NCBI RefSeq assembly: GCF_013122565.1
Contig: NZ_CP053258.1
Length of the DNA stretch: 64,000 bases
From: Escherichia coli
GTDB taxonomy: Bacteria; Pseudomonadota; Gammaproteobacteria; Enterobacterales; Enterobacteriaceae
Strand: one strand, 5' to 3'
The position numbers were made by a program, and so were the translations under genes. This document shows, one piece after another, positions 22,564-48,836 of the stretch. The number at the start of each line of letters is the position of its first letter. Positions within the stretch are counted from its first letter, which is position 1. The notes under the pieces are model-generated. The model made no database searches, had not been told where the DNA came from, and saw only the letters and a program-made list of their open reading frames with translations.

Positions 22564-22736
22564 GGTCAGTGCGTATTTGCAGCGCGACGTTATCAAAGGT
22601 GATCATCGTCGATTTACAAAAAATACACTTAGCGCCCAAAGGGTTTCGCTCCGTCACATCGAATGCCGATGTACGGTACTGTGAACCATGACAATATGGA
22701 CAGCGGAAATGGAGATGTTGAGTAATAACGGCAACC

Positions 22737-22949
22737 TTAGAGCGTAACAACGTTCGCTGCCGCGGGGCCACGTTGCCCCTGCTCAATAGAAAATTCAACT
22801 TTCTGATTTTCGTTCAGCGTGCGGAATTCATTGCTCTGGATGGCGGTGAAATGGACGAAAACGTCTTTGCTGCCATCATCAGGAGTGATAAAGCCAAAAC
22901 CTTTATCTGCGTTAAACCATTTTACTAAACCAGTCATTTTATTAGACAT
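22737..22949 (-). CDS. cspG: Cold shock protein CspG
   Basis: 70 aa [38 protein letters not shown]... Confidence 0.95.
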
Positions 22950-23234
22950 ATTTTACTTCCTTCATTTTGGGCCTTTCGGCAAACAGGGCTTTAATACAGA
23001 AACTACTTAGTGTTCAGGAGAGAGACTCAAAAGAAGGGGATAATGCCTGATAATGAGAACTGCTTTAGTAAACTACTTTGTATGCTGTCTGTCTTTCAAA
23101 CCGACGCAGCTATTAACGCATGATAATTGAGATTAAGCAAATTTTATTTTAGCCGTCCGGCGGTCTTAAATATCGCTGGCTTTATTTTATTAACCCCGTA
23201 TAGTGCAGCGCAGTATTTTCAGTAAGGAATTTGT

Positions 23235-44953: not shown

Positions 44954-45141
44954 GTAAATTTAGGATTAATCCTGGAACTTTTTTTGTCGCCCAGCCAATG
45001 CTTTCAGTCGTGACTAATTTTCCTTGCGGAGGCTTGTCTGAAGCGGTTTCCGCGTTTTTTTTCTGTAAATTGTCGCTGACAAAAAAGATTAAACGTACCT
45101 TATACAAGACTTTTTTTTCATATGCCTGACGGAGTTCACAC

Positions 45142-45309
45142 TTGTAAGTTTTCAACTACGTTGTAGACTTTACATCGCCAGGGGTGCTCGGCATAAGCCG
45201 AAGATATCGGTAGAGTTAATATTGAGCAGATCCCCCGGTGAAGGATTTAACCGTGTTATCTCGTTGGAGATATTCATGGCGTATTTTGGATGATAACGAG
45301 GCGCAAAAA
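45142..45309 (+). promoter_or_regulatory. ompA promoter (TTGTAA-16-TAGACT) and 133-nt 5' UTR
   Basis: Leader beginning GCCAGGGGTGCTCGGCATAAGCC at 45177 matches the remembered ompA 5' UTR; hexamers at 45142-45147 and 45164-45169. Confidence 0.7.
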
Positions 45310-46362
45310 ATGAAAAAGACAGCTATCGCGATTGCAGTGGCACTGGCTGGTTTCGCTACCGTAGCGCAGGCCGCTCCGAAAGATAACACCTGGTACACTG
45401 GTGCTAAACTGGGCTGGTCCCAGTACCATGACACTGGTTTTATTCCTAACAATGGTCCGACCCACGAAAACCAACTGGGTGCAGGTGCTTTTGGTGGTTA
45501 CCAGGTTAACCCGTATGTTGGTTTTGAAATGGGTTACGACTGGTTAGGTCGTATGCCGTACAAAGGCGACAACATCAACGGTGCATACAAAGCTCAGGGC
45601 GTTCAACTGACCGCTAAACTGGGTTACCCAATCACTGACGATCTGGACGTATACACTCGTCTGGGTGGTATGGTATGGCGTGCAGACACCAAGTCTAACG
45701 TACCTGGTGGCGCATCCACTAAAGACCACGACACCGGCGTTTCTCCGGTCTTCGCTGGCGGTGTTGAGTACGCGATCACTCCTGAAATCGCTACCCGTCT
45801 GGAATACCAGTGGACCAACAACATCGGTGACGCACACACCATCGGCACTCGTCCGGACAACGGCCTGCTGAGCTTGGGTGTTTCCTACCGTTTCGGTCAG
45901 GGCGAAGCAGCTCCAGTAGTTGCTCCGGCTCCAGCTCCGGCACCGGAAGTACAGACCAAGCACTTCACTCTGAAGTCTGACGTTCTGTTTAACTTCAACA
46001 AAGCAACCCTGAAACCGGAAGGTCAGGCTGCTCTGGATCAGCTGTACAGCCAGCTGAGCAACCTGGATCCGAAAGACGGTTCCGTAGTTGTTCTGGGTTA
46101 CACCGACCGCATCGGTTCTGACGCTTACAACCAGGGTCTGTCCGAGCGCCGTGCTCAGTCTGTTGTTGATTACCTGATCTCCAAAGGTATCCCGGCAGAC
46201 AAGATCTCCGCACGTGGTATGGGCGAATCCAACCCGGTTACTGGCAACACCTGTGACAACGTGAAACAGCGTGCTGCACTGATCGACTGCCTGGCTCCGG
46301 ATCGTCGCGTAGAGATCGAAGTTAAAGGTATCAAAGACGTTGTAACTCAGCCGCAGGCTTAA
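45310..46362 (+). CDS. ompA: Outer membrane protein A (variant surface-loop allele)
   Basis: [44 protein letters not shown]...; APAPAPAP linker and OmpA-like C-domain. Confidence 0.95.
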
Positions 46363-46380
46363 GTTCTCGTCTGGTAGAAA

Positions 46381-46406
46381 AACCCCGCTGCTGCGGGGTT
46401 TTTTTT
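46381..46406. terminator. Bidirectional intrinsic terminator between ompA and matP
   Basis: AACCCCGC-TGCT-GCGGGGTT hairpin flanked by A-run upstream and T-run downstream. Confidence 0.7.
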
Positions 46407-46437
46407 GCCTTTAGTAAATTGAACTGACTTTCGTCAG

Positions 46438-46890
46438 TTATTCCTTACCCAGCAATGCCTGCAGATCCTGCTTCAGAGAAGACATTTTATTCGCGTATTT
46501 CTCTTTGTTTTCCGCATCTTCAATCAGCTGAACAATCGTTTCAGAAAGCGTTTTACCGCGACGCTGCGCAAGACCAGCCAGACGTTGCCAGACAATAAAT
46601 TCCAGATCGATCGATTTTTTGCGCGTATGCTGGTGTTCCGCATTAAAATGGCGCTTCCGTCTGGCCCGAATGGTTTGCTTCATGCGATTGACCAGTTCCG
46701 GATTCATATGCTTGTCAATCCAGCCATTTACCAGCACGGGTTCATTTTCCAGCGAGAGCAACACATCGACGGCTTCCTGGGCGGCACTGGCTTCTATGTA
46801 ACGGGTGATTAACTCCCCTTCGCGGTGCTTCTTCACCAGATACTTCCATTTCCAACCGCTTTCAAGATTTTCAAGTTGTTGATATTTCAT
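46438..46890 (-). CDS. matP: Macrodomain Ter protein MatP
   Basis: 150 aa [35 protein letters not shown]... Confidence 0.94.
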
Positions 46891-47075
46891 AGCGATCTCA
46901 ATGTTACCGTGTAACTCTTTACAGAATATCAGCTTTTTAGGCCAGTGAAGAAAAGAATCTCCATCCTGTGAGCTTTAACGCTCATGCGAGGAGTATTGTC
47001 GGTGCTTTCTACGTGTGCTGTAGTGCCGGTTACGGTATAATCGCGGCTTTGACAACAGACTAAAAAACATCAACT

Positions 47076-48836
47076 TTGACCATTACGAAACTTGCATGGC
47101 GTGACCTGGTTCCTGATACCGATAGCTATCAGGAAATATTTGCTCAGCCACATTTGATTGACGAAAACGATCCTTTATTCAGTGATACTCAACCGCGACT
47201 GCAATTTGCGCTGGAGCAGTTGCTGCATACGCGAGCATCCTCCTCTTTTATGCTGGCGAAGGCCCCGGAAGAGTCTGAGTATCTGAATCTTATTGCCGAT
47301 GCCGCGCGTACGCTACAAAGCGATGCAGGCCAACTGGTGGGCGGTCACTATGAGGTTTCCGGCCACTCCATCCGCTTACGTCACGCAGTGAGTGCAGATG
47401 ATAATTTTGCGACTTTAACGCAAGTTGTCGCTGCCGACTGGGTAGAAGCGGAGCAACTCTTTGGCTGCCTGCGCCAGTTTAATGGCGACATTACCCTGCA
47501 GCCTGGTCTGGTGCATCAGGCAAATGGCGGTATTCTCATCATCTCTTTGCGTACACTGCTGGCGCAACCTCTTCTGTGGATGCGGCTGAAAAATATCGTT
47601 AACCGCGAGCGTTTTGACTGGGTTGCGTTTGATGAGTCGCGCCCTCTCCCCGTCTCTGTGCCTTCGATGCCATTGAAGCTGAAAGTCATTCTGGTAGGCG
47701 AACGCGAATCATTGGCTGATTTCCAGGAGATGGAGCCAGAGCTTTCAGAGCAGGCTATTTATAGCGAATTTGAAGATACTCTGCAGATTGTCGATGCGGA
47801 GTCAGTAACCCAGTGGTGTCGCTGGGTGACATTTACCGCCAGACATAATCACTTACCTGCACCGGGAGCGGATGCCTGGCCGGTACTTATCCGCGAAGCA
47901 GCACGCTACACCGGTGAACAAGAAACGCTGCCGCTTAGCCCGCAGTGGATCCTCCGCCAGTGTAAAGAGGTCGCCTCCCTGTGTGATGGCGACACCTTCT
48001 CCGGCGAGCAGCTAAACTTAATGCTACAGCAGCGTGAATGGCGCGAAGGTTTCCTCGCTGAACGCATGCAGGATGAGATCCTTCAGGAGCAAATCCTGAT
48101 TGAAACCGAAGGCGAACGCATCGGGCAAATTAACGCCCTTTCGGTCATTGAATTTCCGGGTCATCCACGCGCTTTTGGCGAACCTTCTCGCATTAGCTGC
48201 GTTGTGCATATTGGCGATGGTGAATTCACCGACATCGAGCGCAAAGCGGAGCTTGGCGGCAATATCCATGCGAAAGGGATGATGATCATGCAGGCGTTCC
48301 TGATGTCGGAACTACAGCTTGAGCAACAGATCCCCTTCTCAGCATCGCTGACATTTGAGCAGTCATACAGTGAAGTTGATGGAGATAGTGCCTCGATGGC
48401 TGAACTCTGCGCCCTGATAAGCGCCCTCGCCGATGTGCCGGTGAATCAGAGTATCGCTATCACAGGTTCAGTCGATCAGTTCGGTCGCGCCCAGCCGGTC
48501 GGTGGTTTAAATGAGAAAATCGAAGGCTTCTTTGCTATTTGCCAGCAACGTGAGTTAACCGGGAAACAAGGTGTCATTATCCCCACAGCTAACGTTCGCC
48601 ATTTAAGTCTTCACAGTGAACTGGTGAAAGCAGTAGAAGAAGGCAAATTCACCATCTGGGCAGTAGACGATGTGACTGACGCACTGCCGTTATTATTAAA
48701 TCTGGTGTGGGATGGCGAAGGCCAAACGACGCTGATGCAAACCATCCAGGAACGTATCGCGCAAGCATCGCAACAGGAAGGACGTCACCGTTTTCCATGG
48801 CCATTACGTTGGCTGAACTGGTTTATTCCGAACTGA
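47076..48836 (+). CDS. ycbZ: Lon-like protease YcbZ (S16 peptidase domain, no P-loop seen)
   Basis: 586 aa from TTG start, (M)[21 protein letters not shown]...; Lon Ser-Lys dyad context [10 protein letters not shown] and GGLNEKIEG. Confidence 0.88.

Follow-up and report, generated by a model that had tools for sequence, protein, structure and literature searches.

The question raised by this locus is whether the OmpA encoded there is that of the K-12 reference or an allele that presents a different surface and, if the latter, where such an allele belongs. The stretch of DNA analysed, referred to as the window, comprises 64,000 nucleotides of Escherichia coli, and an earlier reading of its letters had proposed that the gene at positions 45310-46362 is an ompA allele with divergent extracellular loops. 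The identification as ompA was borne out. ORF calling and translation gave an uninterrupted reading frame on the plus strand, running from an ATG to a TAA (350 codons plus the stop), the product of which scored 675.2 bits with the NCBIfam equivalog NF008071 'porin OmpA' (cutoff 277; residues 1-350 covered), while Pfam placed PF01389 (OmpA_membrane) at residues 23-199 and PF00691 at residues 226-321 of the 350-residue precursor. The architecture is that of OmpA, an N-terminal barrel and a C-terminal peptidoglycan-binding domain joined by a Pro-rich APAPAPAP linker, and the gene lies at the orthologous chromosomal position between sulA and matP, in the order sxy-sulA-ompA-matP-ycbZ, collinear with K-12. 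A GTG-initiated ORF of 374 residues that begins upstream (45238) and the antisense ORFs within ompA were set aside as mechanical calls; in K-12, ompA starts at the ATG that corresponds to 45310. The features of the gene and of its surroundings are collected in Table 1.

Table 1. Positions of the ompA features, and of three further features of the window, with the basis of each assignment
Feature	Position	Strand	Basis
cspA thermoregulator (cold-shock gene leader beside cspH/cspG)	22683-23105	-	Rfam gathering threshold
tRNA, at the position of serT in K-12	33650-33734	+	Rfam gathering threshold
ompA 5' untranslated leader	45177-45309	+	No K-12 differences across 45101-45440
ompA CDS	45310-46362	+	350-aa precursor plus TAA stop; ORF, NF008071, Pfam, synteny
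Signal peptide, aa 1-21	45310-45372	+	Identical to K-12
Eight-stranded beta-barrel domain, aa 22-195	45373-45894	+	PF01389; gap-free alignment to PDB 9FZD chain A
Divergent haplotype tract, loops 1 to 3 (gene positions 132-415)	45441-45724	+	41 of the 44 differing alignment columns of the gene
Loop 1 codon, Pro46 (mature position 25; K-12 Asn)	45445-45447	+	Alignment; loop according to Liao 2017 (PMC5413513)
Loop 2 codons, Asp87-Asn88-Ile89 (K-12 Ser-Val-Glu)	45568-45576	+	Alignment
Val114 (K-12 Ile), strand beta-5	45649-45651	+	Alignment, AF2; polymorphic position 93 of Liao 2017
Loop 3 variant, S129-N-V-P-G-G-A-S-T137-K-D139 (K-12 SNVYGKN)	45694-45726	+	Alignment; 12-nt insertion 45708-45719
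Leu186 (K-12 Met), strand beta-8	45865-45867	+	Alignment, AF2; polymorphic position 161 of Liao 2017
Pro/Ala-rich linker (19 residues)	45895-45951	+	Same as K-12
Periplasmic peptidoglycan-binding OmpA C-terminal domain, aa 215-350	45952-46359	+	PF00691; protein identical to K-12
Intrinsic terminator hairpin after ompA	46373-46409	+	GC stem 46383-46398, U-run 46399-46406
PyrD leader	60603-60676	-	Rfam gathering threshold

With 98.6% identity to MG1655 over the 7 kb around ompA, and with the whole 64-kb window running collinearly, in reverse orientation, with the rutR-elfC region of K-12, the host is an E. coli other than K-12, as had been predicted; the absence of the gfc-etk genes agrees with this. 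At 23448-23456, appA directly abuts cspH, and both the etk-etp-gfcEDCBA (group 4 capsule) operon of about 9 kb and the IS1D found there in K-12 are missing. Since 1674 of 5426 complete E. coli genomes have the same appA-cspH junction, this absence is a common presence/absence polymorphism. A second segment, 6141-11949 (cbpM-cbpA-yccE-agp-yccJ-wrbA-ymdF), is 96.7% identical to K-12, compared with approximately 98.1-98.6% for the rest of the window, and is bounded by small indels (near 6141-6163 and 11944-11949); probably it has recombined or is variable. The cspA thermoregulator, the PyrD leader and the tRNA are all expected for this region of K-12.

The expression signals of the gene are those of K-12. 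The original prediction had the 5' UTR as conserved, and alignment over 45101-45440 found no nucleotide difference at all, which leaves the promoter, the 5' UTR and the signal peptide the same as in K-12; the leader length of 133 nt was presumed from K-12, and the signal peptide cleavage site was likewise placed on the assumption that what is established for K-12 OmpA applies, solved mature OmpA chains beginning with APKDNTW. Downstream, 46400-46599 is nucleotide-identical to K-12. The ompA terminator escaped a simple scan, its stem being prolonged into the U-run by A-U pairs, but direct folding of the RNA revealed it (-24.2 kcal/mol; z = -5.2 relative to shuffles); the A-run on its opposite side faces the convergent matP.

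In the protein, the differences from K-12 are confined to the barrel. With MG1655 OmpA (b0957, 346 aa) as reference for both protein and nucleotide alignments, the changes are N46P, S87D/V88N/E89I, I114V, Y132P, an insertion of four residues, an N to D replacement and M186L, and residues 187-350 are identical. The loop differences of the original prediction thus proved real, in loops 1, 2 and 3, and the three loop peptides quoted in the original prediction (44 residues) were all found in the translation. The allele is not of the K-12 type (pattern I or OmpA-short: N25, SVE66-68, SNVYGKN, 346 aa), given that three loops differ and the precursor has 350 residues. That length had been attributed to indels; the length is correct, but the sole indel is one in-frame insertion of 12 nt, by which loop 3 becomes an 11-residue peptide in place of SNVYGKN (or, written more narrowly, a 10-residue peptide in place of NVYGKN). 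Clustering of the differences is far beyond chance: gene positions 121-420 differ at 29 of 288 aligned bases as opposed to 3 of 750 elsewhere (Fisher p = 5e-14). The conservation claimed for the periplasmic domain was confirmed, there being a single synonymous nucleotide difference in it, at 45990, and it carries the alpha C-terminal pattern (N203, G251) of Liao 2017.

An AF2 model, built from a shallow alignment of 15 sequences and of low confidence (pLDDT 40), has strands at residues 27-40, 52-65, 70-81, 95-107, 112-123, 144-155, 160-169 and 184-195, which would put P46, DNI87-89 and S129-D139 into inter-strand connections 1, 3 and 5, i.e., the external loops, and would leave V114 and L186 within strands. 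As the pLDDT is only 40, the loops were assigned from the literature and from the near-identity of the protein to solved structures. No gap is needed to align the barrel to OmpA-long (PDB 9FZD, chain A), from which it differs at four of 174 residues, and a gap of four residues, the loop 3 insertion, to align it to the K-12-type chains 1BXW, 1QJP and 9FZC; by this homology, the eight-stranded OmpA fold of the protein is near-certain.

The gap-free alignment to 9FZD also indicates the class to which the allele belongs. Two classes of E. coli OmpA have been described, and the longer has been published as ompA2 (Power 2006), as patterns II and III (Liao 2017, PMC5413513), and as OmpA-long (9FZD, PMC12259851). 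The polymorphic sites recognised by Liao 2017 (PMC5413513) are mature position 25 in loop 1, positions 66-68 in loop 2 and loop 3 from position 107, together with strand positions 93 and 161; a Pro in loop 1 was described there as co-occurring with Asp-Asn-Ile in loop 2. Both traits of the class were found in the window: P46 is linked with D87-N88-I89, and loop 3 is four residues longer than in K-12 and keeps the frame NVPGGASxKD. The E. coli sequences ST131, E7476, Z1323 and A25 share loops 1 and 2 with the window and have the long loop 3 in the same frame. Patterns II and III in the strict sense have exactly ANVPGGASFKD in loop 3, whereas the window has S129 and T137; judged by its residues, the allele belongs to the unnamed minor pattern represented by isolate 256 of Liao 2017.

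How common such alleles are was assessed in a collection of 5426 complete E. coli genomes. A 56-mer for the Pro type of loop 1 occurred exactly in 2100 of them and a 51-mer for the DNI type of loop 2 in 2213, so the class is carried by about 40% of E. coli, in agreement with the figure of 43% for ompA2 in Power 2006, in so far as it is quoted by Liao 2017 (PMC5413513), and with a published survey of about 86,000 genomes in which OmpA-short and OmpA-long were the two main isoforms (PMC12259851). The allele is therefore ordinary, and the term 'divergent' in the original prediction fits only as a comparison with K-12; it denotes no oddity of this strain, and the outgroups and synonymous distances given below make the K-12 short allele look the outlier. 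Within the class, most long alleles spell loop 3 ANVPGGASFKD. The S129/T137 form is rare (a 60-mer for it was found in 64 of the 5426 genomes, 38 of them exact) and is a minor sub-variant that has already been published.

The identical ompA allele was not found among the 5426 complete genomes, the best match being 99.0% over the whole gene. This absence is not novelty. The allele is already known, because its exact loop set occurs in isolate 256 of Liao 2017 and its exact protein of 350 residues, filed at NCBI as 'porin OmpA [Escherichia coli]', was found on 13 contigs of the NCBI and Logan assemblies, in at least three synonymous nucleotide haplotypes and several backgrounds. The same records bear on the notion that the differences are an artefact of assembly or sequencing, or that the gene is a pseudogene: with the 13 contigs being independent and one of them, Logan SRR11451224, 100% identical to the window over 7053 nt, and with reading frame, promoter, leader and terminator all intact, its probability is negligible, and nothing was found that speaks for it. 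Over 33000-57000, none of the 5426 genomes exceeds 99.0% identity across the 24 kb, and the lineage of the window seems to be poorly represented among complete genomes. Two sequences that encode the same OmpA protein (L002 and L007) share with the window a near-identical tract of approximately 1.3 to 2.5 kb around ompA (compared over 45061-47575) while their flanks differ by about 1%, which suggests that homologous recombination carries the allele from one background to another; in two others (L003 and L006), the same protein is specified by a gene with nine synonymous differences. Matches of ompA on plasmids were rejected as natural mobile copies of the gene, since they represent an Lpp-OmpA surface-display cloning vector; one of them, NZ_CP097216.1, a 4668-bp plasmid of E. 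coli BE311, is a TEM-116 plasmid with an lpp'-'ompA fusion.

The origin of the loop tract was approached through synonymous divergence. Between the window and K-12, dS is 0.31 over gene positions 121-420 and 0.013 over positions 421-1053, a 24-fold difference, although the counts behind the dS values are small (16.5 synonymous differences at 65 sites); the distance within the tract is as large as that to Salmonella or Citrobacter (0.30-0.46). A rival reading is that the tract was recently imported from another genus, such as Salmonella or Citrobacter, by homologous recombination, and the loop peptides do resemble those of both: the loop 3 peptide of one Citrobacter MAG is identical to that of the window, and the Salmonella members of the same protein cluster have the DNI and long loop 3 and also share P, V114 and L186. 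However, positions 121-420 of the window differ by 6.7-9.7% from Salmonella and Citrobacter and by just 1.3% from the E. coli long alleles A25, Z1323 and E7476, by which a recent inter-genus import is effectively excluded; the presence of the same haplotype in approximately 40% of E. coli also speaks against it, and it was judged extremely improbable.

A comparison with E. albertii points instead to the K-12 side of the divide. Over positions 121-420, dS to E. albertii is 0.14 for the window and 0.265 for K-12, whereas over positions 421-1053 the two values are equal (0.115 and 0.116, respectively). The combination of DNI and a long loop 3 was found in E. albertii, Escherichia sp. E1V33, Citrobacter amalonaticus, C. 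sedlakii, Leclercia and Intestinirhabdus, in an outgroup sample that was chosen by the long-loop-3 pattern, is thereby biased to long loops and cannot serve to count species that lack them; the Salmonella cluster members were chosen independently of loop 3. Conversely, SVE together with SNVYGKN was absent from all the non-E. coli sequences examined. On these grounds the long type looks like a vertically inherited ancestral form and the short tract of K-12 like an old or foreign outlier, with the caveat that this claim rests mainly on the dS asymmetry and the Salmonella members, because the other outgroups had been picked by their long loop 3. The opposite polarity, which the original prediction implied and according to which the long allele is a novelty derived within E. 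coli under diversifying selection from an ancestral K-12 short allele, could draw on the slight majority of K-12-type alleles in E. coli (about 59%) and on the same ascertainment of the outgroups, but it is unlikely in view of the long loops of E. albertii and Escherichia sp. E1V33, the shorter tract distance of the window to E. albertii, and the restriction of the K-12 motif pair to E. coli among the sequences examined. Loop 1 departs from the simple long/short split of loops 2 and 3, since three different amino acids occupy position 46 across genera: Pro in E. coli long alleles and Salmonella; Asn in the K-12 class, Citrobacter and one E. coli long allele; and Asp in E. albertii, Leclercia and Intestinirhabdus.

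Beyond the polarity of the change, it is tentatively proposed, as one possibility that we hold at somewhat less than even chances, that the two loop classes constitute an ancient balanced polymorphism. The long class, which E. albertii, Citrobacter and Salmonella have too, would be ancestral and vertically inherited; the short tract would either coalesce before the split of E. coli and E. albertii or derive from an unsampled donor; and the two might be held at a ratio of about 60:40 by phage-driven frequency-dependent selection. The S129/T137 form could then be a surviving older long loop with a Gp38-adhesin specificity of its own.

What the allele would do for the cell follows from the parts that changed and those that did not. 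We consider it very probable, for the explanation as a whole, that this chromosomal ompA is functional and a natural allele, of the OmpA-long (ompA2) class, in a non-K-12 E. coli. The K-12 build is kept throughout (signal peptide, eight-stranded barrel, Pro-rich linker and periplasmic domain, with identical expression signals), and only the surface is altered, by the Pro for Asn in loop 1, DNI for SVE in loop 2 and the four additional residues in loop 3, apart from two conservative changes in strands. Since its structural and regulatory parts match those of K-12 exactly, OmpA is expected to be produced in the same amount and to tie the outer membrane to peptidoglycan in the usual way, its structural role being presumably unchanged. 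In K-12, phage-resistance mutations map to mature residues ~25, 65-70, 108-110 and 154. As the loops form the contact surface for phage adhesins and antibodies, the allele would be expected to change which OmpA-dependent phages and binders recognise the cell.

The distinct surface phenotype that had been predicted receives its backing from published alleles with the same loops. Crystal structures have revealed that nanobodies contact all four loops of OmpA; Nb01 recognises only OmpA-short and Nb39 only OmpA-long (PMC12259851). For the clinical strain CS#17 (P, DNI, V114 and an 11-residue loop 3), values of 78.4% with Nb39, the lowest among the detected strains, and 0.0% with Nb01 were reported (PMC12259851). 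When eight ECOR variants of OmpA were placed in MG1655 lacking ompA, phages with type-1 Gp38 infected all of them, while phages with type-2 Gp38 infected only variants 1, 3 and 4, a restriction that the authors attributed to the types of loop 3 and loop 2; strains with long-loop variants are not infected by type-2 Gp38 phages (PMC12032242). CS#17 and an ECOR variant share the loops of the window, and the published phenotypes thus belong to same-loop alleles, from which a distinct surface phenotype of the window allele is inferred by analogy.

Against such a phenotype it could be argued that the differences are drift, neutral in both selection and phenotype. Attachment to corn stover did not differ significantly between patterns I and II (Liao 2017, PMC5413513), and in clinical strains O-antigen shields most of OmpA (PMC12259851). 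Yet Nb01 and Nb39 discriminate the two classes absolutely (PMC12259851), the host range of the type-2 Gp38 phages was determined with alleles swapped in an isogenic background (PMC12032242), and dN is 0.058 in the tract as opposed to 0.002 elsewhere, with the non-synonymous changes concentrated in loop tips. Neutral drift was consequently considered very improbable.

The allele has little significance beyond strain typing and the prediction of phage or binder specificity. In that respect the strain carries an OmpA-long surface, to which reagents specific for OmpA-short, e.g., Nb01, should not bind, and infection via OmpA by phages with type-2 Gp38 adhesins would not be expected. Diagnostics, vaccines and phage cocktails that target OmpA need both classes to be covered; K-12, the reference for nearly all work on OmpA structure and its role as a phage receptor, carries the apparent evolutionary outlier of the two loop haplotypes.

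Among known OmpA proteins, that of K-12 (PDB 1BXW, 1QJP, 9FZC) has in common with the window the signal peptide, the strands bar the two conservative changes, loop 4, linker, periplasmic domain, promoter, 5' UTR and terminator; it differs by N46P, by SVE in place of DNI and by a loop 3 shorter by four residues, with a nucleotide divergence of 10% over the tract 132-415. OmpA of Salmonella enterica and Citrobacter is like that of the window in DNI, in a long loop 3 with S...STKD, and in V114 and L186, but the whole genes diverge by 7-13% in nucleotides and the C-terminal domains carry genus-specific substitutions such as Y264F and R280K. OmpA-long (Commun Biol 2025, PDB 9FZD) corresponds to ompA2 (Power et al. 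2006) and to pattern III of Liao (P, DNI, ANVPGGASFKD, H). It resembles the window protein in the Pro of loop 1, the DNI of loop 2, the four additional residues and NVPGGASxKD frame of loop 3, the His of loop 4 and the length of the barrel; the window differs from it by I114V, A129S, F137T and M186L, of which the A-to-S and F-to-T changes fall in loop 3, contacted by Nb39. Three further alleles resemble that of the window in their loops. The ECOR 'variant 7' has T137 in loop 3 and probably the same loop pattern as the window (PMC12032242). Clinical strain CS#17 has the same residues at the four outer-loop sites and, as far as can be told from a supplement text that was machine-read, with errors, seems to carry M186 in place of the L186 of the window (PMC12259851). 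Isolate 256 of Liao 2017 (P, DNI, an 11-residue loop 3, H) matches the window at each of the four polymorphic sites of the outer loops and differs in its C-terminal pattern, which is delta (T203, A251) in place of the alpha (N203, G251) of the window.
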